From an uncultured SAR86 cluster bacterium (GTDB taxonomy: Bacteria; Pseudomonadota; Gammaproteobacteria; Magnimaribacterales; D2472): a DNA stretch of 64,000 bases. Position numbers and translations under genes: made by a program. Of this stretch, positions 10,092-49,152 are shown one piece after another. Below the pieces are notes generated by a model that worked only from the letters and a program-made list of their open reading frames with translations, made no database searches and was not told the origin of the DNA. The stretch spans positions 11,803-75,802 of the forward strand of contig CACEAP010000004.1 of NCBI GenBank assembly GCA_902557645.1, read 5' to 3'. Position 1 is the first letter of the stretch; each line of letters begins with the position of its first letter.

Positions 10092-10177
10092 CTTGTTATT
10101 TTACTTTTCAAAATGAGATAAGTCTCAAAAAAATAATTTTATATCGATTAAATATAAATTGTAACTATACTGAACTA

Positions 10178-16390: not shown

Positions 16391-16393
16391 TTA

Positions 16394-20341: not shown

Positions 20342-20342
20342 T

Positions 20343-21104: not shown

Positions 21105-21223
21105 TAATTAATAATTTTTTAATTTAAAGCAAAAAAAATAACAATAACGCAAATTGTTAATACTAGTAGTAAGTTATTATCAAAAAATTTAATTAAGTTT
21201 TTAAGTGTAGGCATCTATATTAT

Positions 21224-30747: not shown

Positions 30748-30759
30748 TTAATATAAAAA

Positions 30760-31314: not shown

Positions 31315-31374
31315 AAACAAATATTAATTAAATGTTATATTTATTTATATAATTTAAATAAATAAAGGTCCTGA

Positions 31375-32574: not shown

Positions 32575-32582
32575 GTGTAAAT

Positions 32583-33359: not shown

Positions 33360-33402
33360 ATAAGTATTGAAAGATATTTTAAAATTATGTTAATTTAAAT
33401 AA

Positions 33403-34785
33403 ATGAGATATAGAAATTTTATATTTACTTTTGCGCTTAGTTTTTCATTTATAACAATAGGAGCGCCATTTGATTCAACTTATGCTCCTCAAAATTCACC
33501 AATAATATTTTTAAAAAATGCGAATATTTATGATGGTGAAGGTAATGAATTGCTTGGATATGATTTATTAGTAAAAAACGGTCAAATTCAAGCTATTGGA
33601 AAAAATCTTTTATTAAATGAGACAGGTAAAGTTCTTTCATATGATCTAACTAATCAATGGGTTACTCCTGGAATAATTGATATTCATTCTCATATGGGTG
33701 TTTATTCTGCACCAGGTGTTAAGACAAGCTCTGATGGTAATGAATCAACAAGCCCTGTAACTGCAGATGTATGGGCAGAGCATTCTGTATGGACTCAAGA
33801 TCCTCAGTTTTCCTTAGCACTTCAGGGTGGTGTTACAACTTTTCATGTTCTTCCTGGATCTGCAAATCTAATAGGAGGAAGAGGCACAACTTTTAAAAAT
33901 ATACAAAGCAATACTATTCAAGGTATGAAATTTCCTAAAGCGCCTCATTCATTAAAAATGGCCTGTGGTGAAAATCCAAAAAGAGTCTATGGTAGTAGAA
34001 AAAGAGCTCCATCAACTAGAATGGGTAATGCTGCTGGCTATAGAAAAGCATGGATTGATGCAGCTGAATATAGAGATGAATTAAATTCTTATGTAAGTAA
34101 ATCCGCTTCTGCTAAAGAAATAGTTAACCCCCCTACCCGTGATCTTGAGATGGATACACTTGCAGGTGTCTTAAATGGCGAAATCCTAGTACATAATCAC
34201 TGCTATAGAGCTGAAGAAATGGTAGTAATGATAGATATTGCAAATGAATTTGGATACAAAATTACAGCTTTTCATCATGCTGTCGAAGCATACAAAATTG
34301 CTGATTTATTAGCAGATAATAATATTTGTGGTGCTTTATGGGCTGATTGGTGGGGATTTAAACATGAAGCTTACGATATGGTTCAAGAGAATATTGCAAT
34401 TGTTGATCAAGCAAGAGGTGGCAAAGGTTGCGCTATTGTTCATTCAGATGATGCAATTGGAATTCAGCATCTTAATCAAGAAGCAGCAAAAGCACTTGCA
34501 GCTGGGAATCGAGCAGGATTTGATATAAGTAAAGCTAGAGCAATGAAATGGATTACTTTAAATCCAGCTCAGGCTGCTGGCATTGAAGATGTAACAGGGT
34601 CATTGGTCAAAGGTAAAGATGCTGATATTGTAATATGGAATATGGATCCATTTAGCGTCTATGCTAAAGCTCAAAAAGTTTTTATTGATGGTAATTTAAT
34701 GTTTGATAGAGACAACCTATTAACCAAACCAGTGTCTGATTTCGATCTTGGGATTATTCAGCCTAATTTGAGTAGAACAGAATGA
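33403..34785 (+). CDS. periplasmic amidohydrolase-superfamily enzyme
   Basis: Signal peptide, HxH metal motif (GIIDIHSHMG), late AIVHSDD, and a GSLVKGKDADIVIWN tail typical of this superfamily. Confidence 0.85.
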   Translation: MRYRNFIFTFALSFSFITIGAPFDSTYAPQNSPIIFLKNANIYDGEGNELLGYDLLVKNGQIQAIGKNLLLNETGKVLSYDLTNQWVTPGIIDIHSHMGVYSAPGVKTSSDGNESTSPVTADVWAEHSVWTQDPQFSLALQGGVTTFHVLPGSANLIGGRGTTFKNIQSNTIQGMKFPKAPHSLKMACGENPKRVYGSRKRAPSTRMGNAAGYRKAWIDAAEYRDELNSYVSKSASAKEIVNPPTRDLEMDTLAGVLNGEILVHNHCYRAEEMVVMIDIANEFGYKITAFHHAVEAYKIADLLADNNICGALWADWWGFKHEAYDMVQENIAIVDQARGGKGCAIVHSDDAIGIQHLNQEAAKALAAGNRAGFDISKARAMKWITLNPAQAAGIEDVTGSLVKGKDADIVIWNMDPFSVYAKAQKVFIDGNLMFDRDNLLTKPVSDFDLGIIQPNLSRTE

Positions 34786-36002
34786 ATAAAATACATTTAA
34801 TTACTGTTTTTATTTTTTCTTTAAGTTTTACTCTAAATGCAGATATCTTAATTAAAAACGGAAATATATACTCTGGCGATTCTGCACCTTTTATTGGTGA
34901 TATTTATATCAAAGATGGGAAAATTCATTCTATTGGTTCATTAAATATAAAGGCATCTAAAGAAATAGATGCTCAAGGTAAAATAGTTACCCCAGGCTTT
35001 ATTGCTCCTATGACATTAATTGGAATTGTTGAAATTAACTCTTTGGATGTTACTAGAGATGATGAGTCCGATTATTTAAATATGGGCTTTAGTATTTTCA
35101 GAGCGTACAACCCTAACTCAACTTTAATCCCCTGGAATCGTGCTAACGGTATTACTTCGGCTATATCTATTCCGCAACAAACCTCAATGCCGCTTGCTGG
35201 TATGGGTTCATATTTTATCTTAGATGGAAATATGAATATATCTGGTTCTAAAGATATGATGATGCTAGGTAGAATTGGTGCATCATCAGGATCGCGGAGT
35301 GAGGATCTGGATCTTTTAGAAAATCTTATCAGTTTAGGCAAACTTGCAAAGAATAGACCCTACGAAAAAGTAATTGAATCTCCAATAGCAGTATTTTTTG
35401 AACTTTTAATCCAAGATATTGAGGCTTTAGATAAAGTAGCAAATGAAGGCCTGCCTCTAGTAATTAAAACTAATCGTGCTTCTGATATTAAGCATCTAAT
35501 AGATATTAAAAATAAATATAAGTTAAATATGATTTTAGCAGGCGTTGAGGATGCACCAATTGTGATTGATGAACTTGCTGCTTCTGAAATACCTGTGATT
35601 ATTAATCCTATGGATAATATTCCAGATTCTTTTGATGAGTTATCAAGCTCATTGGAATTGTCAGCTATATTAAGTAATGCAGGTATAACTGTCTTATTTG
35701 ATACTTCTAGATCGCATAATTATCACCTTATTAGACAAGGAGCAGGCAATGCTGTTGCTTATGGTATGGATTATTTAGATGCTATAGCAGGATTAAGTGC
35801 TAATGTAGCGAATGTATTTGACCTTAAAGATAGAGGCTCAATTACTAAAGGTTATTATGCTGACATTGCTATATGGGAATCTGATCCGCTTGAGCCTGCC
35901 TCTATCCCCTCTTATGTCTTTATTAATGGTATTGAAAGTGACTTAACGACTCGATCATCTCGCCTAAAAGATAGATATATTAAAAAATTAGACAAAAAAT
36001 AA
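34782..36002 (+). CDS. amidohydrolase-like paralog lacking the HxH motif
   Basis: Signal peptide. The start overlaps the upstream stop (ATGA). It keeps the family tail GSITKGYYADIAIWES, but the position of HxH reads TPGFIAPMTLIG. Confidence 0.75.
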   Translation: MNKIHLITVFIFSLSFTLNADILIKNGNIYSGDSAPFIGDIYIKDGKIHSIGSLNIKASKEIDAQGKIVTPGFIAPMTLIGIVEINSLDVTRDDESDYLNMGFSIFRAYNPNSTLIPWNRANGITSAISIPQQTSMPLAGMGSYFILDGNMNISGSKDMMMLGRIGASSGSRSEDLDLLENLISLGKLAKNRPYEKVIESPIAVFFELLIQDIEALDKVANEGLPLVIKTNRASDIKHLIDIKNKYKLNMILAGVEDAPIVIDELAASEIPVIINPMDNIPDSFDELSSSLELSAILSNAGITVLFDTSRSHNYHLIRQGAGNAVAYGMDYLDAIAGLSANVANVFDLKDRGSITKGYYADIAIWESDPLEPASIPSYVFINGIESDLTTRSSRLKDRYIKKLDKK

Positions 36003-36158
36003 GTTATTTTTTAAAATTTTTTGTTGAAAACCTTATCATCAAAGGATTTATGCATATTTAATAAACGTAAAAAATTAGTTAAAAAAATAGCATTAAGTAA
36101 TATATCCATATATTATATACATCAGATACAACTAATTATTCATTTTTAGGGGATACTT

Positions 36159-38960
36159 ATGAAAATTTTGTCGAAACTTTTATTAAGCTTTGTTATAAGC
36201 TTTACAACGTTTGGTTCTTTCAATATTTCTGCACAAGAAGTAGAAGAAGTTGTTGTTACAGCAACAAGAAGGGAAGAATCAATTCAAGATGTTGCTATTT
36301 CTATTCAGGCTTTTAGTGCTGATAATTTAGCTGCTGCACAAATTACAGAAAGTGCTGACCTTGCTGATTACATGCCTGGATTTAGTTATGCGCATGGAAT
36401 TGGATCAGGTTCTGCAACTGGCGTTCGAGGAGTTGCTGGTGCAGCTATCGGTGCTGGAACCACAGCTTCTGTTCAAATGGCAATTAATGGCCATGGTTTA
36501 AATGCAAGTGCATTTGGTGAAATAGGCTTTCTTGATGTTGAACGTGTTGAGGTCTTAGCTGGTCCTCAAGGAACTTTATTTGGTCGTAATGCTGTTGCTG
36601 GTCTAGTTAATCTAGTTAGCGCAAGACCAACTGAAGAAATGGGTGGTTATGCTAATTTTGAAATGGGTAACTATGGTTCAGAAAGAATTAGTACTGCTGT
36701 AAATATTCCTTTCGGAGACAATGTAAGAACAAGACTTGCTTATTCATCATTTATGAAAGATGGTTGGATTAAAAACGTTGGTACTGGTAATGACCTTGAT
36801 GGTCGAGACGCTTATGGTGTTCGTTTATCAGTTGATGTTGATCTTCCTAACGAAGCTTTACTAAGATTTAATTCAGCGCAATACTCATCAGATGATAATA
36901 GATTAAATGTTGCTGGTACGTATTGTGCTAGAGATTCTTTTTATGGATGTTTGCCATGGGAAAAAGGTAATCTTAATGAGCCTTATCATGTTGCCGGAAC
37001 TGTGGGTGGTCTAATAGACGTGCTAACTTTCTTATCCCCAAGTGTTAATGCTGATCCTTACGCAAATACTGTTTACACAACAAGTATTGATACAGTTAAC
37101 AAAAATAGAGATCCGCACAGAACTCAAGTTATTGAGAATTCACAAATTCAATACATTAAAGATCTTGATAATCTTACTTTAACTGCAAAATACTCATACT
37201 CTACTAGAGATTATGATCATAGAGATGATAATGATCATTCAAACTCAACTGAGCCTTTTGCAACTGCTTTAGGTATTGTTCCTGGATGGGATGTTCAGTT
37301 TGAATGTTTCCCTTCTACTACTGTTACCTCAACAGAAGCAGTTGAGTGTTCACAAGCAGACGAAGTAACAAGACAAGCAGAATTTACTGTGGTTTCTGAC
37401 TATGATGGTCCTCATAATTTCTCTGCTGCTGTATATCAATGGCAGTCTGATTTTGATAATGACTATCATGTACAAACATCTAGTTATCAAATGCTTAGAG
37501 ATTTTGAACTACATCCTTATATGGCTAGCCTTTTTGGTGGAGCACTTAATGATTTAGGTGGTGCTGCGGCATGGACTGTATTTGGTGGTGTTTTTGCGGC
37601 AGTTGCTCCTTCTTTACTTGGAGGTGTAATTGATTTACCAACAGCTCTTGCCCAAATTACAGGTGGTACTTTGGCAACATGTGGTACCTTGGGAGGATTA
37701 TGTGAAAGAAGTCTTCCTAATAAAATGGGTGGATTAATAACTGACCAAAATGGTATAACAAAATCTACTGCCTTCATGGGTGAATATTATTATCAAATGA
37801 ATGAAGATACTAAATTTACTTTTGGTCTTAGATATAATGATGATACATATGAAAGTACTATATTTAGTTCTTTATCAGATATCTCTAATACAAACTACGT
37901 ATATACAGGACCTGATTATTCAAGAACAAATCCTGGAACTTCAAGAGAGCAAACAGAGAACAGTGCTTTAACATATAAGCTTGCAGTTCAGCATAACCTT
38001 TCAGATGACAGTATGGTGTATGCATCTTATGCAACTGGTTTAAAAGCTGGTGGTACATCACCTAATGAATTCTCTATTCAGGTGCCTTATGCAGAAGAAG
38101 AATCCGCATCACTTGAAATTGGTACAAGAAATATTCTTATGGATGGTAGGTTATTATTAAATGCTACATTATTTGAAATGGATGTTACTAACGGGCAATT
38201 AGGTCTTATTTATAATGCTGGAGCTGTTAACAAAACCTTTGACTATGTAAATACAGGTCTTGAAGGACAGATGAAGTTCTTTGCTACAGATAATACTGAG
38301 ATTGAATTTAACTGGTTAGCTTTAGATTCAGAAATGGGTGAAGCGCTTCAAGATGATCCTCTTAACCCTAACCAAGCAACTACTATCCTTGGAAAAGGAA
38401 GTGGAACTGCTGGTTTAACAGCACTTTTACAAGCTATTGGAATGGATGCAGCTACAGCTGCTGGAACTGCTGCTGCTGTTGGCGCACAGTTACCAAATGC
38501 GGGTCTTACTAACTGGGCATTAACTGATGCTGGAATCCTTGGATCTTATCAAGGAGCATTAATAACTATTCCTGGTTTAGCTGAGATTGTTGGTGTTCAA
38601 TTAGCAGGCAACAGATATCCTGGAACTACAGAATTAGATTACAACCTTTCAATAACTCAGAGATTCCCACGTGATGGTGGAGCTACTGACTTAAGATTGT
38701 CTTATATTCATAAAGGACAAAGAGAAGGAAGTATATTTAATATTGATAAATTCTCAGTTCCAGAAGCTAAATATTTTGATATGACTGTAATCTATACGCC
38801 AAGCTCTGAAGAGTGGTATGTAGGTGGTTTTGTTAAGAATATTGGTGACAAAAGATATAACATCGGTACAGAGCAATCAAGTACACTTCAAGGTGGTATG
38901 TCTCAAGTAACTTATGCTCAACCTAGAACATATGGTTTAACATTTGGAATGAATTTCTAA
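36159..38960 (+). CDS. TonB-dependent receptor with Gly/Ala-rich loop insertions
   Basis: Signal peptide, EEVVVTATRRE TonB-box/plug region, VEVLAGPQGTLFGRNAVAGLVNLVS, C-terminal ...YGLTFGMNF. SD AGGGGA upstream. Confidence 0.9.
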   Translation: MKILSKLLLSFVISFTTFGSFNISAQEVEEVVVTATRREESIQDVAISIQAFSADNLAAAQITESADLADYMPGFSYAHGIGSGSATGVRGVAGAAIGAGTTASVQMAINGHGLNASAFGEIGFLDVERVEVLAGPQGTLFGRNAVAGLVNLVSARPTEEMGGYANFEMGNYGSERISTAVNIPFGDNVRTRLAYSSFMKDGWIKNVGTGNDLDGRDAYGVRLSVDVDLPNEALLRFNSAQYSSDDNRLNVAGTYCARDSFYGCLPWEKGNLNEPYHVAGTVGGLIDVLTFLSPSVNADPYANTVYTTSIDTVNKNRDPHRTQVIENSQIQYIKDLDNLTLTAKYSYSTRDYDHRDDNDHSNSTEPFATALGIVPGWDVQFECFPSTTVTSTEAVECSQADEVTRQAEFTVVSDYDGPHNFSAAVYQWQSDFDNDYHVQTSSYQMLRDFELHPYMASLFGGALNDLGGAAAWTVFGGVFAAVAPSLLGGVIDLPTALAQITGGTLATCGTLGGLCERSLPNKMGGLITDQNGITKSTAFMGEYYYQMNEDTKFTFGLRYNDDTYESTIFSSLSDISNTNYVYTGPDYSRTNPGTSREQTENSALTYKLAVQHNLSDDSMVYASYATGLKAGGTSPNEFSIQVPYAEEESASLEIGTRNILMDGRLLLNATLFEMDVTNGQLGLIYNAGAVNKTFDYVNTGLEGQMKFFATDNTEIEFNWLALDSEMGEALQDDPLNPNQATTILGKGSGTAGLTALLQAIGMDAATAAGTAAAVGAQLPNAGLTNWALTDAGILGSYQGALITIPGLAEIVGVQLAGNRYPGTTELDYNLSITQRFPRDGGATDLRLSYIHKGQREGSIFNIDKFSVPEAKYFDMTVIYTPSSEEWYVGGFVKNIGDKRYNIGTEQSSTLQGGMSQVTYAQPRTYGLTFGMNF

Positions 38961-39015: not shown

Positions 39016-39705
39016 CTATATATTTATTGAATCAAAGGGTTCTTCTATTACACCAGTATTTTTAAAAGAGACTATATAAGAATTCTTTTTATTTCCAAAA
39101 TTAACAGATTTTATTGGCTTACCATCAATTAAATGTAAGGCAGCATGGCCTTCGATCCCTATACATTCTGTTAGATTATTTTGAACTAGTTGATCTTTTA
39201 CATATGGCCTTCTGCTAGGCTCTTCGTCATAATGCGGGCAACATATACCATCAACAAAACCTAAACAATTTAAAATAGCTAAATTATCTGCCCATGAGTC
39301 TGTTATACCTTTATCAAACCAACAAATTGCACCAGCACTGACACCGCACATTATCACCCCTTGATCATATGCCTCCTTAAGAAGCAAGTCTAAACCCCAT
39401 TCCTTCCATACTGCTAGCATACTCTTAGTATTTCCACCGCCTACAAATATGATATCTTGTTTTCTAATATGATCTTTTAAATTGATTGTTCTTTTAAAAA
39501 AGTCTATGTGAGTTGGATTACAATTAAGTTTAGTGAAAACGTCATAAAAATTAACTTTATAAGCATCATTATCTCCTGTTGCTGTTGGAATAAAGCATAC
39601 ATTAGGATTCTTATTATTTTGTTGCTTAATAATATATTCCTCTATTTTTCTATCTGAAGGGTTTCTTCCAAAACCCCCTCCGCCAATTGCAATAATTTGT
39701 TTCAT
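39016..39705 (-). CDS. peptidase S51 / type-1 glutamine-amidotransferase-like protein (peptidase E family)
   Basis: IIAIGGGGF, FIPTATGD, IIFVGGGNTKSML, and nucleophile region CGVSAGAICWF. Confidence 0.8.
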   Translation of the reverse strand: MKQIIAIGGGGFGRNPSDRKIEEYIIKQQNNKNPNVCFIPTATGDNDAYKVNFYDVFTKLNCNPTHIDFFKRTINLKDHIRKQDIIFVGGGNTKSMLAVWKEWGLDLLLKEAYDQGVIMCGVSAGAICWFDKGITDSWADNLAILNCLGFVDGICCPHYDEEPSRRPYVKDQLVQNNLTECIGIEGHAALHLIDGKPIKSVNFGNKKNSYIVSFKNTGVIEEPFDSINI

Positions 39706-40377
39706 CTAAACATTCCGATTAAATTGAATTATTTTTTGTTTCCACTTATTTGTAAAAAAATCAAATTCATGGCCTTTAATTGTAAATTCCTTGAATATTA
39801 AATCTCTATCAATCATTAAAATTACAACTTGTTTAATATTTGTACTAAACATTACATTATGTGCATTTGCATAAGCGCAACCCTGAAGAAAATAATCCTC
39901 TATCCATTCACGGCGTTTAATTCGTTTTGCAGTTTTAAAATCAATAATTGATGGCACACCTTTTACTAAACCAACACAATCAGCCGTGCCGGCATACAAA
40001 CCATCAAGTATAAGACCAACCTCAAGACCCCAAGCTTCGTCTATAGAATTAAGTCCATCTGTTATGAATTTGTTAGTAATACTTTTTGCTATAAGGTCTG
40101 TTCTTTTTTCTGAAAAATTATCCCATTCATTGCCATTTAGATATTCTTCAATAGCCTCATGAACTGCTGACCCAATATCAGTGCTTTCCTTAACCACCCT
40201 CTCAGCTTCTTTTTCTCCAACCCGCTTTTTCCAATCTTCGATTCCTTTTTTAGAAGAAGTACCTGATAATATTGTAGTAACGCTAGGAACTGGGGTCCCA
40301 GTAGAATCTATATAATGACGACCTCTATCGAGATCAACTCTCTCCAAGGTTGGATATTGATATTTATTAGAAATCAT
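39706..40377 (-). CDS. RecB-like PD-(D/E)XK nuclease family protein
   Basis: N-terminal HY.....G...PSVTTIL. Nuclease core GTADCVG-x13-IIDFKTAKR (D...D-x-K) followed by a QxxxY motif (FLQGCAY). No Fe-S Cys cluster. Confidence 0.7.
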   Translation of the reverse strand: MISNKYQYPTLERVDLDRGRHYIDSTGTPVPSVTTILSGTSSKKGIEDWKKRVGEKEAERVVKESTDIGSAVHEAIEEYLNGNEWDNFSEKRTDLIAKSITNKFITDGLNSIDEAWGLEVGLILDGLYAGTADCVGLVKGVPSIIDFKTAKRIKRREWIEDYFLQGCAYANAHNVMFSTNIKQVVILMIDRDLIFKEFTIKGHEFDFFTNKWKQKIIQFNRNV

Positions 40378-42347
40378 TTTTCAATATGCTCATCAAATAA
40401 TTTTTCCAGGGGTAAAAGATCATTTTCAAAATTTTTCCAATAATCTAGACCAGATTTATATATGGGTTGTCTAACTTGCTCTGCACTTGGTGTCTTAACA
40501 GGTCTTTTAGATTTATAAAATTCAAAACACTCTTTTTCAAAAGGAAGATTGCAATATTGAAGCAGTTTTATTATTTCATTTTCAGTATCTGAGACCATAT
40601 TTGCATACTTTACTGTGTAAATTTGATTTGGATAAATACTATGCCAATGATCCATAATATTTATATAGTCATTGTAAAATAATCCTAAGTCCTCTAGATC
40701 GTATGTAAAAAGCTGTCCTTTTGCAAAAAACTGTTTAAAACAGCTAAAACAAGTATCCATAGCTCCTCTGCGTGTATCTATAATCTTGGCATTAGGTAAT
40801 ATAGTTTTTATAAATCCAATATGCATAAAATTATTAGGCATTTTATCTATAAAGAATGGCGCATCGCCCCTACTCCATCTAGTTTGATCAATATATTTAT
40901 TACCCAGCTCTGATATTTGCATTTCTGATAATTTCTTTAAGAAACTAGGATATGCCTCTTTGTTTTTTCCTATTGCTTCAACTTCTCTTGATAGATTCAT
41001 AATGTTAGGCAGTTCTTGAGTTCCATCTACCATCGAATGAGATGAAATAATTTGATCAATTAAGGTTGATCCAGACCTTGGTAATCCCAAAATAAAAATT
41101 GGATCTGGATCATTACACTTTGATTTTTTTATCTTCTTAACTACATCTTTGTTAAAAAACTCAATACTTTTATTTACTCTGTCTGAATTTTCTTGAGATG
41201 AATATTTAATTAATTTTCTTTTAATCCAATTGCCTTCACTGTACATTTTAAAAGATTGCTTAAAATCTTTTTTTACCTCAAAGGCTTTACCCAATGCAAA
41301 TAGTAGCTGAACCTTTTCATTTTCAGAAATATCATTTGATAAAGTTTTTTGCATCTCTTCAATCTGCTTTGATGAAAATTCATATGTTTTTAAGTTAGCT
41401 AAACTCCAATAAGCTTCGCCAGAATTAGGATTATATTTAACAGCATTTATATATGACTCAACTGACTTTTCATTATTTCCAATAGTATTGTATGCATGTC
41501 CTAAACTTAAATAGGCCCTTGGACTATCTGGCTGGAGTGATACACATCTTGAGTATGCGACTATGGCTTCTTTATAACGAGCCATCATAATTAAAATAGT
41601 TCCATAATCGGCCCAAACGCTTGCATTTTTTGGATCTAATGCAAGTATATTATCCATAGATTTTTGTGCTTTATCTAATTGGCCAGACAATCTGTAAACA
41701 AGAGATATATTGCGCCATAAGAGACTATAAGACGGTGCTAGTTTAATGGCTTTTATTAGAAGCTGTTCTGCAATTTTATACTTACCCCCTTTGGTAGCTA
41801 AAATTCCTAATAACCTTAAAGCATCGACGTTTTCTGGATCTTCTTTTAATATATTTGTATAAACTTCTTCTGCTAACTTTACCCTTCCAGCTTTTGCATG
41901 TCTTATTCCTTTATATAAATTTGAATAGGTGGTATTTCTTTCTAGAAATTCTTGAATAACATCATCAGCCTCTTCTTCTTTATCCAGTTCTACCAAAATA
42001 TTACTCAATTGTCGTAAAAGAGAAATATCAGGTTTAACATTTAATAGGTCTTTAAATTTTTTACAGGCTTCATATTTTTTATTTTGAAATAAAAGAATTT
42101 GAATTTCTTTCTCCAAGAGTTCGGTACTCTTTGGATTAATACTCAGTCCTTTTTGAATATAAATAAGAGCTTCAGATGGATCATTTTGCTTTATTGAAAT
42201 ATCAATAATTAAAACAATAGAATTTAGCTCATTTGGAAAAATCTTTAATATCTCTAATAATTGAGCTTTAGCTAGAGATAACTTATTATCATTAATTAAA
42301 TCAATTGCATTTTCGTAGGCATTTTTAGGAGAATCTAAATCTTTCAT
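40374..42347 (-). CDS. TPR-repeat sulfotransferase family protein (copy B)
   Basis: TPR repeats, then GLPRSGSTLIDQII, IDTRRGAMDTCFSCFKQ and KTPSAEQVRQPIYKSGLDYWKNF. Its stop overlaps the nuclease start (ATGA). Confidence 0.85.
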   Translation of the reverse strand: MKDLDSPKNAYENAIDLINDNKLSLAKAQLLEILKIFPNELNSIVLIIDISIKQNDPSEALIYIQKGLSINPKSTELLEKEIQILLFQNKKYEACKKFKDLLNVKPDISLLRQLSNILVELDKEEEADDVIQEFLERNTTYSNLYKGIRHAKAGRVKLAEEVYTNILKEDPENVDALRLLGILATKGGKYKIAEQLLIKAIKLAPSYSLLWRNISLVYRLSGQLDKAQKSMDNILALDPKNASVWADYGTILIMMARYKEAIVAYSRCVSLQPDSPRAYLSLGHAYNTIGNNEKSVESYINAVKYNPNSGEAYWSLANLKTYEFSSKQIEEMQKTLSNDISENEKVQLLFALGKAFEVKKDFKQSFKMYSEGNWIKRKLIKYSSQENSDRVNKSIEFFNKDVVKKIKKSKCNDPDPIFILGLPRSGSTLIDQIISSHSMVDGTQELPNIMNLSREVEAIGKNKEAYPSFLKKLSEMQISELGNKYIDQTRWSRGDAPFFIDKMPNNFMHIGFIKTILPNAKIIDTRRGAMDTCFSCFKQFFAKGQLFTYDLEDLGLFYNDYINIMDHWHSIYPNQIYTVKYANMVSDTENEIIKLLQYCNLPFEKECFEFYKSKRPVKTPSAEQVRQPIYKSGLDYWKNFENDLLPLEKLFDEHIEK

Positions 42348-42425
42348 ATAATTAAGAATATTAATGACCTTGCGAAGGATTGGAATAAGTCGCTAATATT
42401 TATTCCTATTTTACTATCATTTGCA

Positions 42426-43838
42426 ATGTGTGTGTATGCGATTAGCGATCCAGCAACAACTGCATCACAATTATCTAATATATATAGCATTGTTGCTTTA
42501 AAGTTTGAGACTGTTTTTCAATATGGTGCTTTGGTAATTTTACTATTTTTATTATTACTAGCATTTAGTAAAGCTGGATCTAAAAAAGTTAGTATTGCTA
42601 GCTCTCCTAAATATTCATTCTTCTCTTGGTCATCAATGTTATTTGCCTCAGGTATGGGAGCTACTATTTTATATTGGTCACCGATTGAATGGTCCGCATA
42701 CTACAATGACCCCCCTTTTAATCTTGAGGTCGGATCAATTGAAGCAGTTAGAACTATAAATGCATATACCTCTTTTCACTGGGGATTTAGTGGCTGGGCA
42801 ATATATGCTTTACCAGCTGTAGCCTTTGCAATATCAATTACAAAAAACCCCACATCTTCATTAACCTTTGGATCGCTTTTAGTAAGTGATAATTTGCCTT
42901 TTAGTTATTTTTTTAAAACTATACTTGATATTTTTTTTATATTTGGAATTCTTGCTGGCGCTGGCGTTGGACTTGGTCTTTCATTTCCACTAATTGCTGA
43001 AATTGTTGCTACATTTCTAGGAATATCTTCTTCATTGGCCCTAGAGTTAATAATTCTTTTGATCTGCTTGTTCATAATTACCACTAGTGCATATTTAGGC
43101 ATAACTAAAGGCATAAAAAGACTAAGTAATATTAATATTGGGCTTTTAGGTCTCTTATTAATTTTTGTTCTTGTCGCAGGCCCAACAACATTTATTCTAT
43201 TTAATAGTCTTGATGTCTTATTGGTATACGGTACTAAATTCATACAAATGAGTACTTATGTTGGTGATAAGTTTGTACAGGACTGGACAGTGTTTTATTG
43301 GGCGTGGTGGCTGGCACTCGCACCTTATCTTGGTGTATTTTTTGTAAATATCTCAAATGGGAGAACTCTAAAAGAGTTGATTCTTGGAACAATTCTTATT
43401 GGTGGTTTTGGTTCGGTAATACATTTTTTAATACTAGGTAATTATTCTCTTCACTTATTTGAAAACAGTATTTTAAATGTCCCAGACCTATATGCATCAG
43501 AGAAGCCTACAAAGGTAATTGTAGATGTAATACTTACTCTCCCAATGAGTTACTTAATTTTATTTTTATATGGATTAATATCTATCATTTTCTTATGTAC
43601 TACCTATGATTCGTGTGCTTTCATCCTCTCACGTACTGCTATGAGAAGATCAGATATTTCACCCTCTAAAATTCTAAGAATAATATTTTCTATATTATTG
43701 GTTATTCAGCCTGCAATTCTTATGTATCTTGGAGGTGTTAATACTGTAAAATGGATGCTTGTAATTAGTGCTATTCCACTAATTTTTATTAACGTTTTAT
43801 TAATTGGTTATATTATTAAAAATGTACAAAAAATCTAA
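42426..43838 (+). CDS. BCCT family transporter (copy B); true start possibly upstream of the first ATG
   Basis: BCCT signature WTVFYWAWWLALAPYLGVFFVNISNGRTLKEL. The open frame continues upstream to 42339 and encodes a TM1-like segment without a canonical start codon. Confidence 0.8.
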   Translation: MCVYAISDPATTASQLSNIYSIVALKFETVFQYGALVILLFLLLLAFSKAGSKKVSIASSPKYSFFSWSSMLFASGMGATILYWSPIEWSAYYNDPPFNLEVGSIEAVRTINAYTSFHWGFSGWAIYALPAVAFAISITKNPTSSLTFGSLLVSDNLPFSYFFKTILDIFFIFGILAGAGVGLGLSFPLIAEIVATFLGISSSLALELIILLICLFIITTSAYLGITKGIKRLSNINIGLLGLLLIFVLVAGPTTFILFNSLDVLLVYGTKFIQMSTYVGDKFVQDWTVFYWAWWLALAPYLGVFFVNISNGRTLKELILGTILIGGFGSVIHFLILGNYSLHLFENSILNVPDLYASEKPTKVIVDVILTLPMSYLILFLYGLISIIFLCTTYDSCAFILSRTAMRRSDISPSKILRIIFSILLVIQPAILMYLGGVNTVKWMLVISAIPLIFINVLLIGYIIKNVQKI

Positions 43839-44700
43839 TAACTCTAATTATTATTTACATAATTTTTCTTCTTTAGACTATTCGAAAGATTCATTATTAT
43901 TTATACCTGGTGCGGGAATGGATCATAGAATTGTAAAAGACATAAAACTTGATTCGAATAAGTTTAATAACACTCTAGCAATTGATACTCCTCATCATGG
44001 ATACTCAACTGGACCAAAACTTACATCAATTGAGGAATATGCAGAAGGAATTGAGGAAGTTCTTAAAGAGATTGATATAAGTAAATTTCATCTATGTGGG
44101 CATAGTATGGGTGGATTAATAGCTTTAAGAATAGCTTTTAATAAGAAATTAAAGTTTAAATCTATCAATATACTTAATGCCTCTTGTCCAATGTTTGTTG
44201 GTTCAGCTTTATTAGATGATTCTAGAAAAAATTTAGACTCTGCAATGAATATGCTTACAACATACGGAGTAAGTAAAGCACCAAAAGCGAAAGCTAGTGG
44301 CCCAATGTTTGGAACTATGGGTTCCGGATTTTATCAAAAAAAGTCTGATTTAATTAATACTCCATACGGAAGTAAAAAAATTGTTGATAAGTTAGATGAT
44401 GAGGTTGATTTGTATGCTTTAAAGAAACTTTTTAATCAAATAACAAAAGACATCTTAAATAATGATCTAAATGCCTGTAAAAACTTTGTTATTCCTGATT
44501 CTGAGATTAATGAATATAAAGACACAATAAATTTTATCTTAGGTGAAAAAGACAACTTAACTCCAGTAAAGTATGCACAAAAATTTTGTGAGAATTTAAA
44601 AAGTTCACAAATTGTAATTATTGAAGAATTGGGCCATTTCACTTTCTATGAAGACCCTACCAAGCTCTCAAGCGAGCTTGGTAAGTTATTGTCTAGTTAG
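43822..44700 (+). CDS. alpha/beta hydrolase
   Basis: GHSMGG nucleophile elbow and a C-terminal ELGHF histidine region. The track start at 43804 is TTG; the first ATG is 43822. Either start overlaps the BCCT 3' end. Confidence 0.75.
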   Translation: MYKKSNNSNYYLHNFSSLDYSKDSLLFIPGAGMDHRIVKDIKLDSNKFNNTLAIDTPHHGYSTGPKLTSIEEYAEGIEEVLKEIDISKFHLCGHSMGGLIALRIAFNKKLKFKSINILNASCPMFVGSALLDDSRKNLDSAMNMLTTYGVSKAPKAKASGPMFGTMGSGFYQKKSDLINTPYGSKKIVDKLDDEVDLYALKKLFNQITKDILNNDLNACKNFVIPDSEINEYKDTINFILGEKDNLTPVKYAQKFCENLKSSQIVIIEELGHFTFYEDPTKLSSELGKLLSS

Positions 44701-44703
44701 ATA

Positions 44704-47097
44704 TTAGAATCTATATCTTAGTCTAAGCCCTATAGTTCTAGGCTTACTTCCTGTTCTTCTAACATCGCCAAAGTCATCATATATACCAAGAGTAGGATCA
44801 GCATCATGAACATTTTCAAGGTAGACCTCTAGAGAAGCATTTTGAAGAAATCCTAGCACATCATCAACATCAGAACTTCCTTTGCTAGAAGGATTAACTC
44901 CAAACCTAAGATTTGCTAATGAGTATGATGCATTCGTATCTGTATTAGCAGATGACTGATAACTTTCTCCAGTATAAGAATGATCATAACTAACATATGC
45001 ATCTCTATTTCTAATAACAAAGTCTTTATTCATTGACATTACGAATTGCTCAGTTGGCACATAGGCTAATTGATTACCTTTTGGTGTTGACAGCTGTCCT
45101 TGAAGATCATATATATCTTCTTTAAATTCTGGATCAGTTAAAGCTAGCATTAATGAGGCACTAAAGCTATCTGAGATATTAAAATAACTCTCAAGCTCTA
45201 ATCCTGATATTGTTGCTTGTCCAACATTTTGAACAAATGCCACTGTTAGTAAATCATATATGTAACTAGTAGATTGGAAATCATCCCAGTTCATAGTGTG
45301 AAGATTACCATTTAGGACAATTTTTCCATCAGCTAAGGTAGATTTAAATCCTGCTTCAAAATTAGTCAAGGTATCTGAATCATATGTTGCAGGTACTATT
45401 CCTGATTCACGCGCCTGTCTGTTTAATCTGTTTGTTCCACTTGGTCTAAAGCCTTCAGAGTAGGTAGCGTAAAGCAATACATCATCATTTAACTTATGCG
45501 CTATATTTATTTTGGGTGAAACATCAGAGAAATCTTTTGTATACTTCTCAGTTCTTCCAGCTGCCCAAGATAAAATTGGGTGATCTTGATAGTATCCCAT
45601 GTATCCATCTTTAGCATCAAAATTAGCTTCATTTTTATATGCGCGCATACCAACAGTTAGGTCTGTTTTATCACTAAGCGGCCAAGTAGCTTCACCAAAA
45701 ATAGCTTTTTGGCTATCTTCTCTTACATTATCTTGTTTCCACCATCTGCCAGGCACTGAAGTAAGAATATTTGAAATAGCAGGCATATTGTAAGTAGTGG
45801 AATATGCTAATTCTTGATCTTCAATAAAGACACCTAAAATCCATCTAAATCCTGAATCATTTGTTGATTGCATTCTAAATTCAGTACTTTGTCTATCATA
45901 CTGATCATTTTCAACATAGAACATACGTGCATCAGTGGAAGCATAATAATCATAGTCATATGCGTATGCAGAGTATGAATCATAGTAGTTTGTATAAACA
46001 TAATTAGTATAGTCATACGTATAATCTATTTCACGATCAAATATTGATGTGTTAAATGTAAATTCGACATCATCTGATAAATTACCATTAATAGTTAAAG
46101 ATGTTTGAGTGAACTCATCGTCAAAGGTTTCATCAGCAAATCTAGAATTTTTTCTAGCTCCCTCTGCTACATCTGTTTCCCATGATCCGTTTGAAAAAGA
46201 TTCATGACTTAAAAAAGATAGATCTATAGTTGTTCCACTATCCATATCATGGCCTAAACGAACTCTATGACCAGATTTATCTATCCAGTTGTAGTCATCC
46301 TCGACATAGCTACTATTATCAATCGTAGCACCAGTGTAGTAGAAACTTACAGTCGAAGGAACATTATCGATCCAACCGCCATTACTAATGTCATAGGCAC
46401 TAATTCTTAAAGCAGTATTTGTTCCAAGTGGTATATTAACGAAAGTTTCAAGCGACTCATCGGTAGAACCATCATGAATATCACCACGCTCTATATCAAA
46501 ACCTGCTTCAAAGCCAGATGGATCAGGTTTATTTGTAATAATCCTCACTGTTCCAGATTGAGATGAGGATCCGTATAGAGTTCCTTGAGGTCCTTTTAGA
46601 ATCTCAACTCTATTTATGTCATAAATATGAGGATCTGGATTTCCACCAATAGTTGATACAGGCTGCTCATCTATATAATAAGCAGTAGAAGCTTGAGCTC
46701 CTGCTCTATTGCCAAAACCGCCATCAGAGACACCTCTAATATAGAAATATGAATTTCCTGTTCCGCTTGAATCCAATGTAATAGATGGGGATAAAGCAGC
46801 AATGTCATCAAAATCAGTAATATTTTTAGCTTCTAATTCCTCTGCACTAATTGCCTGAACAGCCATAGGAAGATCTTGAATATTAGTAGCTCTTTTTGAA
46901 GCTGTAACTATTATTTCCTCAACGCTTGAGTCAGCCTCCTCGGCATTAAGAGTATTTGTCTGGGAAAAACCAAGACCTATAGATAAAGCACCTAAATATG
47001 ACATTGCATATTTATTGTCTTTAAAGATATCTCTTAAAAGTAAAGTTAACGGATCTGCTTTCTTTTCAAACAGAGGTTTAAGTAAAAAATTGTTCAT
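44704..47097 (-). CDS. TonB-dependent receptor (copy B of the module)
   Basis: EEIIVTASKR, VEILKGPQGTLYGSSSQSGTVRIITNKP, YIDEQPV, C-terminal ...GLRLRYRF. SD AGGGGGA lies 4 nt before the ATG at 47097. Confidence 0.9.
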   Translation of the reverse strand: MNNFLLKPLFEKKADPLTLLLRDIFKDNKYAMSYLGALSIGLGFSQTNTLNAEEADSSVEEIIVTASKRATNIQDLPMAVQAISAEELEAKNITDFDDIAALSPSITLDSSGTGNSYFYIRGVSDGGFGNRAGAQASTAYYIDEQPVSTIGGNPDPHIYDINRVEILKGPQGTLYGSSSQSGTVRIITNKPDPSGFEAGFDIERGDIHDGSTDESLETFVNIPLGTNTALRISAYDISNGGWIDNVPSTVSFYYTGATIDNSSYVEDDYNWIDKSGHRVRLGHDMDSGTTIDLSFLSHESFSNGSWETDVAEGARKNSRFADETFDDEFTQTSLTINGNLSDDVEFTFNTSIFDREIDYTYDYTNYVYTNYYDSYSAYAYDYDYYASTDARMFYVENDQYDRQSTEFRMQSTNDSGFRWILGVFIEDQELAYSTTYNMPAISNILTSVPGRWWKQDNVREDSQKAIFGEATWPLSDKTDLTVGMRAYKNEANFDAKDGYMGYYQDHPILSWAAGRTEKYTKDFSDVSPKINIAHKLNDDVLLYATYSEGFRPSGTNRLNRQARESGIVPATYDSDTLTNFEAGFKSTLADGKIVLNGNLHTMNWDDFQSTSYIYDLLTVAFVQNVGQATISGLELESYFNISDSFSASLMLALTDPEFKEDIYDLQGQLSTPKGNQLAYVPTEQFVMSMNKDFVIRNRDAYVSYDHSYTGESYQSSANTDTNASYSLANLRFGVNPSSKGSSDVDDVLGFLQNASLEVYLENVHDADPTLGIYDDFGDVRRTGSKPRTIGLRLRYRF

Positions 47098-47215: not shown

Positions 47216-48244
47216 TTACTGATCAAATAGTCTATTTAAAAGATATTTTGAACCTTCTATCTTATCAATTTCTCTGCATTCATTATAGATAATTTCCGAT
47301 TGAATATTAGCTCTGCAGTAACCCTCATTTGATGTGATTCCGGGCCATGCGTGACCAGCTTCTGAATTAATAATTGCAGTTATAGTTACGTCATTATCAC
47401 AATTATAGTAAATAGTCTCTGAAGACCTAAAAGGTGAAGTTATTTTAGAGCTTTTAATATTTTTACAATTAAATTTTGAAGACCAAGAAGATGTGGTATT
47501 TTTAATAGGCTCATAATAATAACCACCTGAAGATTTAATTGATATTGGTGGAACTGATTTATCAAGTAAACCCCCATAAATTATAAGATTTATAGGTGAT
47601 TCAGGTACGCAGCTTAGTTTATGTGGCTGCATACCAACCACATTGATAACTCCATCAAAAATATCAGAGTATTTGCAACCGATTAATTGAGCCATCATGC
47701 CGCCATTACTAAGGCCCATAACATAACTTTTATCAACCGAGAACTCTTCATAAATTTTTAGGGTTATAGTTTTTATAAAATCTAAATCATTAACACAGCT
47801 TGTCCAATAACAAGAGTTTTGATTACTGCAACTTGGAAATGGAAGAGCGCTTTGTGAGTTATCTTCACATATTTTTACTTCTTTATTATTCTTAATTAAT
47901 GGTCCCAGATGATTCCATGAACTTGAATATACTGTTTGGGTTATTTTGGAACCATCTTGTGTTTGCATTTCATAGCTTGGATAAAAATACTTGCCCTGTG
48001 GATATACAACAATCAACCCTTGTTCTTCAGCATAACGATTAAAGCCACCAGTTGTTTCTTTTTCAAATCCAGATGCAGATCCTGAGAATCCATGCAGTCC
48101 TATAACTAATTTATAAGATTCTTTTTTAACAGTAGGTAAAAAGAGAAGATATGAACGCTCTTCACCAGCATGATTAACATTAACTCTTTCCATGCTATTT
48201 ATCACTGGAGCAAAGATTAATAATACATAGAAAAAAAATTTCAT
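47216..48244 (-). CDS. secreted PHB-depolymerase-family esterase (LpqC/feruloyl-esterase-like)
   Basis: Signal peptide, GLHGFSGSASGF, nucleophile GLSNGGMMA, and several Cys pairs. Confidence 0.75.
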   Translation of the reverse strand: MKFFFYVLLIFAPVINSMERVNVNHAGEERSYLLFLPTVKKESYKLVIGLHGFSGSASGFEKETTGGFNRYAEEQGLIVVYPQGKYFYPSYEMQTQDGSKITQTVYSSSWNHLGPLIKNNKEVKICEDNSQSALPFPSCSNQNSCYWTSCVNDLDFIKTITLKIYEEFSVDKSYVMGLSNGGMMAQLIGCKYSDIFDGVINVVGMQPHKLSCVPESPINLIIYGGLLDKSVPPISIKSSGGYYYEPIKNTTSSWSSKFNCKNIKSSKITSPFRSSETIYYNCDNDVTITAIINSEAGHAWPGITSNEGYCRANIQSEIIYNECREIDKIEGSKYLLNRLFDQ

Positions 48245-49152
48245 GAGTTCAAAAATTTTTCAATACTTTTAAAAACATGTTCATTATTAGTTTCATTTAA
48301 AATTTCATGTCGCAGCTCTGGCAATAATTCTAGTTGAATTGATTTATTATATTTACTTAAAAATACTTTAAGTGCATGGACGCCCTTTCCATTCTCGCCA
48401 ACAGGATCTTCAGAACCTGCTATGAGTAATATTGGTAAATTAATATCAACTTCTAACATTTGCTCGTGAGAAAAAGCTTTTATTACTCCACCAGCTAAGT
48501 CTTCATACATTTGGTTGGTAGGAACAAATCCACATAAGGGATCATTTATATAAGCGTCAACACTTTTATGATTATTTGATAACCAATCATGGGTTGTTCT
48601 ATTAGGTTTGAACTGAGCATTAAATTTTTTTGTAGTTAAAAAATCTGAGAAATAGCTTGGGCTTTGTGGGCCTTGAAAAAATTTAAGAATTTTTATTATA
48701 AATTTTTGAAGCTTTAGCTGTACTACAGATAATTTAGAAGACGCAGACAAAATTACTTTAGCAGGGCTAATATTTCTTTGAAGAAGGGAAAGGGTTAACC
48801 AAGTTCCCATGCTATGCGCTAAAATATAATGAGGTAATTCTTGATATGTTTTTTGAATTTCTTTAAAAGCAGTTTCCATATTATCTATAACTAGATTCCA
48901 TCCATTATCTTTAGCAAAAAAACCAGGCAGTGCTCCAGATTTAATCCAATCACCATGTCCTATATGATCTATTCCTACAACATGGTATCCAATTGAATTA
49001 AAGTATTCAGAGGTTTCTTTGTATCTTCCAAAATGTTCCGCAAGTCCATGATATATATGAATAACACCGATTGAACCATTAGGAGAATGAGATTCTGATA
49101 TAAAGATCTTTAAAGAATCACTATTTGAAGTTTCAGCTGTAATAAATTTCAT
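48241..49152 (-). CDS. alpha/beta hydrolase, lysophospholipase/monoacylglycerol-lipase-like
   Basis: IYHGLAEHFGRY, nucleophile AHSMG, late GSEDPV and RHE. Its stop overlaps the next gene's start by 4 nt. Confidence 0.8.
   Translation of the reverse strand: MKFITAETSNSDSLKIFISESHSPNGSIGVIHIYHGLAEHFGRYKETSEYFNSIGYHVVGIDHIGHGDWIKSGALPGFFAKDNGWNLVIDNMETAFKEIQKTYQELPHYILAHSMGTWLTLSLLQRNISPAKVILSASSKLSVVQLKLQKFIIKILKFFQGPQSPSYFSDFLTTKKFNAQFKPNRTTHDWLSNNHKSVDAYINDPLCGFVPTNQMYEDLAGGVIKAFSHEQMLEVDINLPILLIAGSEDPVGENGKGVHALKVFLSKYNKSIQLELLPELRHEILNETNNEHVFKSIEKFLNS

Follow-up and report, generated by a model that had tools for sequence, protein, structure and literature searches.

A tetratricopeptide-repeat sulfotransferase and its TonB-dependent receptor in a SAR86 locus with BCCT transporters and esterases

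What is a cytoplasmic sulfotransferase doing beside an outer-membrane receptor, a transporter of the BCCT family and an alpha/beta hydrolase? The question is raised by a locus of an uncultured SAR86 cluster bacterium, located in a stretch of 64,000 nucleotides, hereafter the window (assembly GCA_902557645.1, contig CACEAP010000004.1, positions 11,803 to 75,802; coordinates below are those of the window). The locus, called copy B, consists of a tetratricopeptide repeat (TPR)-sulfotransferase (ST_B), a BCCT transporter (BCCT_B), a hydrolase (HYD_B) and a TonB-dependent receptor (TBDR_B), and a second set in the same window, copy A, has its own ST_A, TBDR_A and BCCT_A. An earlier note on this DNA saw in them a functionally linked set that may import an ester, for example an acylated choline or carnitine-like molecule, which would be deacylated and sulfated. 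The open reading frames (ORFs) and Pfam matches bore out the coordinates, strands and families that it had given for the four copy B genes, as well as the existence of the copy A set. SAR86 bacteria are among the most abundant of the surface ocean, and their TonB-dependent receptors (TBDRs) are thought to define their carbon niche.

We favor, with about even confidence, the explanation that copy B is a SAR86 uptake locus for an onium-bearing ester nutrient and that its sulfotransferase (ST) is an accessory of the receptor, not an enzyme of a small-molecule pathway. We assign the ST to the receptor because their pairing is invariant while the genes downstream vary, because the ST has the architecture of a protein modifier, and because its fold and motifs are like those of the tyrosylprotein sulfotransferases (TPSTs). 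The core would be a dedicated TBDR subfamily with its own cytoplasmic TPR-ST, to which lineage-specific downstream genes have been attached. The additions here would be a BCCT of the DddT/CaiT branch, a cytoplasmic serine hydrolase with an overlapping start and, next door, a secreted esterase and a lysophospholipase-like hydrolase. Full-text searching of the literature found no description of a TPR-ST/TBDR pairing and nothing relevant on SAR86 and sulfotransferases, and the pair, including its function, appears to be undescribed so far.

The sulfotransferase-receptor pair across Proteobacteria

We scanned one genome per species for the ST motifs DKMPNNF and [ED]AYWSLAN, which gave at least 588 confirmed loci. 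Eighty of them were kept, spanning Xanthomonadales/Lysobacterales, Steroidobacteraceae, Woeseiaceae, Halieaceae, Porticoccaceae, Alteromonadaceae, Caulobacter, Brevundimonas, Kordiimonas and Emcibacter. Locus ORFs were extracted and searched with the window proteins and a TBDR hidden Markov model, and the set came to 87 loci in total, 75 of which are outside SAR86. Results showed that among the 74 STs of these 75 loci a TBDR lies within 500 bp in 53 cases and within 2.5 kb, with one small gene between, in 15. Six STs had no TBDR, five of them being at most 1.6 kb from a contig end. ST and TBDR were adjacent in 68 of the 69 testable non-SAR86 cases, most commonly (42 of 68) as an ST followed by a TBDR on one strand. 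This near-invariant adjacency outside SAR86 indicates that the conserved unit is the ST+TBDR pair, and no third gene universal to the pair was found in the 87 loci. The functional linkage that had been proposed from the window extends beyond this genome, very strongly for the ST and the TBDR and moderately for the BCCT.

The partner TBDRs, of ~800 aa, form a single homologous cluster, with full-length similarity between those of Alpha- and Gammaproteobacteria. TBDR_A and TBDR_B aligned over their full length with the partners from Glaciecola and Caulobacter (312-428 bits), and their similarity to another TBDR of the window, a protein of 933 aa, was confined to the plug (76-98 bits). Taking as a pair an ST within one gene of a TBDR of this subfamily, copy A qualifies with a 74-bp gap on the same strand, and in copy B ST_B and TBDR_B are separated only by the BCCT and hydrolase cassette. 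Several genomes carry two or three such pairs (L014, L068, L061 and the window). TBDR_B itself has a signal peptide followed by a TonB box (EEIIVTA), a plug, a barrel and a C-terminal RYRF, and the motifs conserved in the alignment of partner TBDRs are generic plug and barrel motifs only.

Two genes recurred between or beside ST and TBDR, each in 14 loci. The first encodes an Asp/Asn beta-hydroxylase-like (AspH-like) protein of ~190 aa (e.g., L013:12016-12591), and the second U311, a 311-aa protein ('SVVRGSEKGQSHGGVY...'; e.g., L029:11983-12921) without Pfam or NCBIfam match. In NCBIfam, equivalogs were absent for U311 and the AspH-like protein, as well as for the ST, the TBDR and the hydrolase.

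One-to-one operons of this kind, with the 42 same-strand cases, would also suit an ST whose product is a secreted, sulfated ligand (a metallophore or "bait") derived from a common metabolite or peptide, which the partner TBDR then re-imports. The AspH-like gene of 14 loci would fit the hydroxylate-then-sulfate logic set out in passages of Iyer et al. 2010 (PMC2938197), and the TBDRs score best, weakly, against siderophore-receptor models. Against such a ligand, no conserved exporter, precursor peptide or biosynthetic gene was found beside the pair in the 87 loci, and the intergenic gaps of 50-80 bp, with no ORF inside, are too small for a peptide gene; we consider it the least probable of the explanations weighed here. 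The same passages predict bacterial hydroxylation-then-sulfation systems, sometimes with TonB-type receptors, and to that extent resemble our loci. They differ in that their neighborhoods center on JmjC/2OG dioxygenases, halogenases, SapC and collagen-like or tail-collar substrates, and a TPR-ST with a dedicated TBDR is not among the systems that these passages describe.

A TPST-like sulfotransferase with OGT-like repeats

ST_B has no signal peptide. Its full-length AlphaFold (AF2) model, with a mean pLDDT of 80, comprises an array of about 10 TPRs (aa 7-317), which linker helices connect to an alpha/beta ST domain; the TPST-like domain, of the type that uses 3'-phosphoadenosine-5'-phosphosulfate (PAPS), occupies aa ~410-657. 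The TPR region was best matched, both in sequence and in fold, by the superhelices of OGT and SPINDLY. As a fold search with the full-length model returned TPR proteins only, the ST domain was modelled alone (aa 395-657), giving a model of only moderate quality (pLDDT 68, pTM 0.70). With this model, ranks 1-10 and 12-14 of the fold matches were TPSTs, led by tick TPST (7.5e-8) and then TPST1 and TPST2; the top 10 had E values from 7.5e-8 to 4e-6 and TMq of 0.52-0.57. The CurM ST and the OLS ST took ranks 11 and 15, and mycobacterial Stf, heparan-sulfate 3-OSTs and cytosolic SULTs scored ~1e-4 to 1e-3, with the SULTs at 1e-3 or worse. By sequence, the closest PDB entries to the ST domain were the CurM ST (1.4e-5) and TPST1 (2.4e-3). 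In Pfam, ST_B matched PF13469 at 3.8e-43 as compared to 2.5e-11 for PF00685, and is not of the SULT type.

The motifs of a PAPS-dependent ST are in place, namely a 5'-phosphosulfate-binding (PSB) loop P423-R424-S425-G426-S427-T428 and a 3'-phosphate-binding (3'-PB)-like R-x7-S (R527...S535). Across 81 homologues the PSB-loop positions except S425, R527 and the DKMPNNF motif were at least 95% conserved, and S535 was invariant in the SAR86 alignments. The Lys of DKMPNNF and the Arg of the PSB loop align with their counterparts in TPSTs (DKMP vs NKDP), with which ST_B also shares the PF13469 domain (TPST1/2 and tick TPST); the Glu base of TPSTs aligns to Gly442 of ST_B, which is flanked by the conserved Asp/Glu441 and Glu445. 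ST_B differs from TPSTs in sequence (~17% identity) and in layout, TPSTs being TPR-free type II membrane proteins of the Golgi.

Mean pairwise identity across Proteobacteria was 0.56 for the ST domain and 0.31 for the TPR region, and between ST_A and ST_B it was 57% and 17%, respectively. A conserved catalytic module joined to a divergent recognition module is, by analogy, the design of OGT-type protein modifiers, and the TPRs of OGT select protein substrates. This divergence of the TPR part, with conservation of the catalytic part, argues for a protein or peptide acceptor and not for a choline-like alcohol. ST_B shares with OGT and SPINDLY the long N-terminal TPR superhelix and the C-terminal group-transfer catalytic domain. 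Its catalytic domain is a P-loop sulfotransferase and not a GT-B glycosyltransferase, so that the likeness is an analogy of design without catalytic homology. The family is large: we counted 10,808 relatives of the linker and ST domain (E ≤ 1e-30) among 50%-identity cluster representatives, and most of the ST relatives among the 150 matches listed have 650-680 aa and the same layout. Giant relatives (P0241, P0244, P0294 and others) of 1,000-2,800 aa carry two to six copies of the linker and sulfotransferase domain.

On these grounds the ST would most likely be a protein or peptide O-sulfotransferase, the acceptor being the receptor precursor or a receptor-associated protein. In its general form, the proposal that TPR-STs are OGT-like protein O-sulfotransferases, each dedicated to one TBDR and sulfating its precursor or an associated protein, is put forward tentatively, as a possibility that we hold below an even chance by a good way. 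If true, it would represent a widespread and so far unrecognised post-translational modification system for bacterial outer-membrane transport and, with the receptor or a partner protein as acceptor, a new layer of control of that transport. It would also be only the second bacterial tyrosine or protein sulfation system after RaxST. RaxST, a cytoplasmic tyrosine sulfotransferase of bacteria, offers a precedent, as its reported acceptors include an outer-membrane protein, Omp1X, next to RaxX (PMC4892823). RaxST differs in having no TPR array and in working with a precursor peptide and a peptidase-transporter; neither a precursor-peptide gene nor a peptidase-containing ABC exporter was recurrent in the 87 loci, which therefore do not correspond to the RaxX-RaxST-RaxAB system.

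Several points weigh against a receptor-accessory role or against reading copy B as a unit. The ST-domain model is only moderate, and CurM-type STs are nearly as close as TPSTs. No acceptor of the ST was identified, and a conserved acidic-Tyr motif is absent from the partner TBDR alignment; a Tyr/Asp-rich stretch of TBDR_B (aa ~355-390), considered as a conserved sulfation site, turned out to be lineage-specific and therefore provides no recognisable sulfation motif. A cytoplasmic enzyme acting on a Sec-exported barrel protein would be unusual. SAR86 has been reported to lack sulfate uptake and assimilatory reduction (PMC3358033), which bears on the supply of PAPS. The methylated-amine islands around many ST-TBDR loci, described below, would fit a small-molecule role for the ST. 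Finally, within SAR86 the whole neighborhood of ~20 kb is colinear, which alone says little for a four-gene unit.

The proximity of CurM raises the possibility of an activating ST as in CurM or olefin synthase, that is, one that sulfates a hydroxyl of the imported compound or of an acyl intermediate, the sulfate leaving in an elimination or decarboxylation during catabolism. CurM-type STs act on acyl-ACP substrates, not on protein side chains. Among PDB sequences the CurM ST comes first, with CurM and OLS at fold ranks 11 and 15, and several of the neighborhoods contain enoyl-CoA hydratases, acyl-CoA dehydrogenases or a KASIII-like gene. TPSTs stand above CurM by fold, however, a carrier-protein or thioesterase partner is absent from the locus, the TPR array is left unexplained, and the PAPS-supply problem of SAR86 applies equally; we regard such a role as very unlikely.

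Transporters, hydrolases and a candidate ester substrate

The features of the two copies and their neighbors are collected in Table 1. As had been noticed from the letters alone, HYD_B starts inside the 3' end of BCCT_B: its ATG at 43822 is 17 nt inside, and public gene calls agree on this start. TBDR_B ends 3 nt from the HYD_B stop.

Table 1. Genes of copy B and copy A and adjoining genes in the window
Feature	Coordinates	Strand	Description	Basis
ST_B	40374..42347	-	Cytoplasmic TPR-sulfotransferase, 657 aa	TPR repeats and PF13469 Sulfotransfer_3, E 3.8e-43 (Pfam)
BCCT_B	42426..43838	+	BCCT transporter, DddT/CaiT branch, 470 aa; divergent from ST_B	PF02028, E 5.6e-105
HYD_B	43822..44700	+	Cytoplasmic alpha/beta-fold serine hydrolase (GHSMGG), 292 aa	Pfam
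TBDR_B	44704..47097	-	TonB-dependent receptor, 797 aa; convergent to HYD_B	Plug 5.9e-18, barrel 6.5e-26 (Pfam)
Secreted esterase	47216..48244	-	PHA/PHB-depolymerase family, N-terminal signal peptide	NCBIfam NF050058, 4.7e-29; synteny
Hydrolase_4	48241..49152	-	Lysophospholipase/monoglyceride-lipase-like alpha/beta hydrolase	PF12146, 1.3e-38; synteny
UNK223	39706..40377	-	223 aa; weak PD-(D/E)XK nuclease similarity	Sub-threshold, E 0.06-0.08
Peptidase_S51	39016..39705	-	Dipeptidase E/cyanophycinase family; abuts UNK223	
ST_A	22634..24595	-	Paralogous TPR-sulfotransferase	Pfam
TBDR_A	24670..27117	-	Partner receptor of ST_A; upstream of it, same strand, 74-bp gap	Pfam
BCCT_A	27381..28895	+	TmaT/BetT-branch transporter, divergent from TBDR_A	BCCT Pfam, E 1.6e-161
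S12 hydrolase	21224..22546	-	Periplasmic beta-lactamase-family (S12) serine hydrolase, directly downstream of ST_A	Pfam; signal peptide, SMTK motif

Both transporters are full-length matches to the BCCT profile and, judging from their closest relatives, belong to different branches of the family. BCCT_B is DddT/CaiT-like, with DddT (3e-84, 287 bits) and CaiT (4e-56, 194 bits) as closest PDB entries, followed by TmaT and BetP (3e-36). BCCT_A is closest to TmaT, the trimethylamine transporter (2e-125; PMC11708041), ahead of BetT-type transporters (8e-94) and BetP (1e-80), with DddT farther, and it falls under the NCBIfam equivalog cut-offs for betaine and choline transporters. BCCT_B has the tryptophan motif of TM8 (WTVFYWAWW). 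We read its substrate-site residues by eye, from an alignment with DddT, against the residues listed in PMC13270143. The onium box is kept, as W119, W287, F290, Y291, W294 and W295 correspond to W140, W313, F316, Y317, W320 and W321 of DddT. Five DddT positions differ. Of the carboxylate-binding residues, Ser204 is Gly182 in BCCT_B, Gly101 is Thr and Ala99 is Gly; Tyr324, which with Trp140, Trp320 and Trp321 binds the sulfonium, is Leu298, and position 112 is changed as well. The gene has no dddD or dddX beside it, unlike a DddT-type importer of dimethylsulfoniopropionate (DMSP) such as that of Psychrobacter sp. D2, and no DMSP lyase gene was found among the annotated window ORFs of at least 150 aa. 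According to PMC13270143, metagenomic homologues resembling DddT showed no DMSP transport, and the substrate of a BCCT cannot be told from its sequence. Considering the preserved onium box, the changes at Ser204 and Tyr324 and these inactive homologues, the substrate of BCCT_B is likely an onium compound, and DMSP is doubtful.

The start of BCCT_B may lie upstream of the ATG at 42426. Upstream of it, 26 further codons of the frame are free of stops, back to an ATA at 42348, with the other two frames closed, and these codons (42348..42425) encode 'DWNKSLIFIPILLSF', a match to the first transmembrane helix conserved in the relatives. In distant SAR86 relatives the orthologue has ~496 aa, and its ATG abuts the divergent ST start (CAT|ATG); at this ancestral position the window has ATA and L008 has ATT. 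Since the codons are still open, translation either starts at a non-canonical codon or yields a transporter with a shortened N terminus; judging from the sequence, the ATA at 42348 is a possible true start, which would leave a divergent intergenic region of zero length with the ST start.

Across the 87 loci no third gene accompanied the pair more often than a BCCT (18 loci), which is present in all SAR86 loci and, in several unrelated lineages, in L017, L031, L061, L062, L063, L072 and L082 (~7 of the 75 outside SAR86). Other loci have an MFS transporter instead, and most have neither. We distinguished at least four arrangements (arrowheads give the direction): BCCT< TBDR> ST> in copy A of the window, L010 and L082; TBDR> ST> BCCT> in L063; ST> TBDR> SDR> ADH> [COesterase>] BCCT> in Glaciecola, Colwellia and L062; and TBDR> HYD< BCCT< ST> in SAR86 copy B. 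The third is an apparent operon in Glaciecola sp. 33A (L017:9899-20837), L061 and L062, composed of ST, TBDR, a short-chain dehydrogenase/reductase (SDR), a quinone-oxidoreductase-type alcohol dehydrogenase (ADH), in some cases a COesterase, and the BCCT, which is followed by a gene of the arylmalonate-decarboxylase/Asp-Glu-racemase superfamily. A LysR regulator is located upstream of the L017 operon, and the same ORF cluster is upstream in L061. We also considered an SDR (62458..63228) and a Zn-ADH (61472..62461) of the window as orthologues of the Glaciecola/Colwellia SDR and ADH; they were rejected, with just 24-33% identity.

In Halieaceae/Luminiphilus, Porticoccaceae and related metagenome-assembled genomes (MAGs; L029, L024, L039, L080, L083 and L064), the ST-U311-TBDR genes belong to an island that also encodes a GbcA-like Rieske oxygenase, a GcvT/TMAO-demethylase-like aminomethyltransferase, two CrtI-like flavin amine oxidases and a BetI-type TetR, together with an amidohydrolase, an MFS transporter, an MTHFR-like protein, DAO and a glutamine-synthetase-like protein. 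From its gene content this island looks like an uncharacterised methylated-amine catabolic cluster, and at least one amine marker was found in 26 of the 75 non-SAR86 loci.

These observations are relevant to the idea that the TBDR and BCCT serve to take in a choline- or carnitine-like alcohol, which the hydrolase frees from its ester, and that the ST O-sulfates this alcohol in the cytoplasm, giving an osmolyte or storage form like choline-O-sulfate. The BCCT is the commonest third gene in its at least four arrangements, each of the two SAR86 STs has one, the three A-type genes have congruent trees (see below), and methylated- or quaternary-amine enzymes and the BetI-type repressor are neighbors in other taxa; the strong conservation of the catalytic domain could mean one shared small acceptor group. 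A sulfation step of this kind would be a new one in methylated-amine metabolism. Plant choline sulfotransferase is of the cytosolic SULT type. The ST domain is TPST/CurM-like, unlike cytosolic small-molecule SULTs, an OGT-like TPR array of ~400 aa has no obvious role for an acceptor of 100 Da, at least 60 ST-TBDR pairs have no BCCT within 10 kb, and BCCT_A and BCCT_B fall in different specificity branches. PAPS is moreover costly to spend on a nutrient, in an organism reported to have neither sulfate uptake nor assimilatory sulfate reduction (PMC3358033). We consider sulfation of the import unlikely, and this part of the earlier proposal is not supported: the ST is TPST-like with OGT-like TPRs and pairs with the TBDR whatever the inner-membrane transporter.

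The ester part of the proposal is plausible and had been anticipated. Dupont et al. 2012 (PMC3358033) described SAR86 TonB loci with esterases and BCCTs and proposed that fatty acids are removed from betaine lipids, the polar head groups then being taken up into the cytoplasm. Our locus is from the same organism group and likewise combines a TBDR, several esterase-family proteins and a BCCT; the difference is that the paper never mentions a sulfotransferase (0 occurrences) nor an ST-TBDR pairing, and contains no experimental test of the proposal. It also suggests that SAR86 glycine-betaine transporters may take up DMSP. HYD_B has the features of an alpha/beta serine hydrolase, namely GHSMGG and, in alignment with the carboxylesterase Est-2, the Asp of GEKDNLTP and the His of ELGHFTF. 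Est-2 (5frd) is its closest PDB entry (9e-14), NCBIfam matches are generic only, and no signal peptide is present. Its homologues among the 120 matches listed are 47-100% identical, all of them marine-metagenome or gammaproteobacterial MAG proteins, and none of these 120 lies outside SAR86-like sequences. Among the 87 scanned loci the hydrolase is present in SAR86 loci only and is absent from the SAR86 lineage L011. In Glaciecola, a COesterase directly upstream of the BCCT represents an esterase beside a BCCT that arose independently.

For the uptake locus that we favor, these genes suggest the following order of steps. TBDR_B would bring a scarce onium-bearing ester, quaternary-ammonium or sulfonium, across the outer membrane, candidates being a betaine-lipid deacylation product or a compound of the acyl-choline or acyl-carnitine type. 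Periplasmic esterases may trim the ester, the onium head group would enter the cytoplasm through the BCCT, and the translationally coupled cytoplasmic hydrolase would cut the remaining ester. The idea of betaine-lipid or choline-ester uptake thereby becomes concrete and testable, as the locus links a highly expressed receptor to onium transporters and esterases.

Each of the four copy B genes is covered in part by contigs of marine metatranscriptomes, whose word depth is 75-200 at TBDR_B, 20-50 at HYD_B, 5-15 at ST_B and 2-6 at BCCT_B. By contig depth, which is a poor measure of expression, may include DNA carry-over and does not resolve operon boundaries, TBDR_B is the most highly expressed gene of the region. 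Its depth was 10-40x that of the neighboring genes in four marine metatranscriptomes.

Separate histories of the two copies and their surroundings

The recurrence of the set in the window had raised the question of module duplication or independent recruitment, to be checked with trees of the three families. Neighbour-joining trees (200 bootstraps) of ST, TBDR and BCCT did not support a duplication. ST_A, TBDR_A and BCCT_A each clustered with the genes of L063 and L082 (bootstrap 0.73, 0.975 and 1.0), two loci that, given their G+C of 56-58%, are not SAR86; the window has ~32%. The SAR86 B clade had a bootstrap of 1.0 in all three trees without a supported sister, and monophyly of SAR86 A and B received 0.225 (ST), 0 (TBDR) and 0 (BCCT). 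A sister relationship between the B-type genes and the modules of Glaciecola, Colwellia or L062 was likewise considered and rejected (bootstrap at most 0.07 in all three trees). Identity between A and B is 43% for the STs (over 505 aa) and 31% for both the BCCTs and the TBDRs (full length). By these trees the A-type triple is an old unit common to SAR86 and other gammaproteobacteria, and copy B a separate, old assembly, which refutes a recent module duplication. The separate histories strengthen the case that a BCCT beside the pair is selected for.

This bears on the simplest alternative, that the ST and TBDR are one unit and the BCCT and hydrolase a second one (perhaps an importer of an osmolyte or a DMSP-like compound together with its esterase), the two standing side by side in a streamlined genome. 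Here the colinearity of the ~20 kb neighborhood across SAR86 lineages counts in its favor, as do the lack of a BCCT near most ST-TBDR pairs elsewhere, the distance of 2-5 kb between BCCT and pair in some non-SAR86 loci (L031, L072) and the suggested import of DMSP by SAR86 glycine-betaine transporters (PMC3358033). BCCTs are nevertheless rare genes, and finding them near the pair in ~7 of 75 non-SAR86 loci and in both SAR86 copies exceeds a chance expectation of ~1 in 75, a rough guess that assumes ~3 BCCTs per 4000 genes and is not computed from the data. In addition, the arrangements are independent and involve different BCCT subfamilies, the A-type genes share one history with high-GC gammaproteobacteria (0.73, 0.975 and 1.0), and ST_B and BCCT_B share a divergent intergenic region of just 0-78 bp. 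We judge mere adjacency to be decidedly unlikely, slightly more so than sulfation of the import.

Synteny in sister genomes is kept. The SAR86 order is 2OG-oxygenase, nucleoside transporter, KASIII-like, Hydrolase_4, esterase, TBDR, hydrolase, BCCT, ST, UNK223, S51 and large TBDR, and it is retained in lineages with STs just 48-57% identical, but as part of the colinear neighborhood as a whole. ST_B is the first gene of an overlapping ST-UNK223-Peptidase_S51 operon (ST_B and UNK223 overlap by 4 nt), and this trio is kept in SAR86 B-type loci. On the other side, the secreted esterase has a conserved position beside TBDR_B in SAR86, and the Hydrolase_4 gene overlaps it, both being upstream of TBDR_B. 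In L010 (SAR86 AG-917-O19) copies B and A are ~2.5 kb apart, in the mirrored orientation also seen in the window. The nearest named genome to the window is SAR86B, and the same ST, with its neighborhood, was found on contig CACDQD010000009 of GCA_902554835.1 and on several marine metagenome contigs.

The hydrolase had been described as an addition specific to copy B. HYD_B is real, but copy A also adjoins a hydrolase, the S12 protein of Table 1. Downstream of ST_A on the same strand, the block 18327..22546 contains this S12 hydrolase, an ABC ATPase, an ABC-2 permease and an alpha/beta hydrolase, which means that copy A likewise has hydrolases, and possibly an exporter. About 5 kb from copy A (15932..17269) there are genes for a dimethylarginine dimethylaminohydrolase (DDAH) and for a glutathione-dependent formaldehyde-activating (GFA) protein, which hint once more at a metabolism of methylated amines in the region. 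The ~9.6 kb between the two copies (29317..38960) hold MFS_2, a nitroreductase, a beta-lactamase-family protein, an SDR, two amidohydrolases and the 933-aa TBDR; in the Steroidobacter loci L021 and L042, paired amidohydrolases are directly upstream of the ST. The window also has two beta-lactamase-family hydrolases and two MFS_2 transporters. Lastly, it is rich in alpha/beta-fold hydrolases, with six in 64 kb (6416..7384, 10085..11092, 18327..19274, 43822..44700 and two in 47216..49152), which agrees with the specialisation on lipids and esters that has been described for SAR86.

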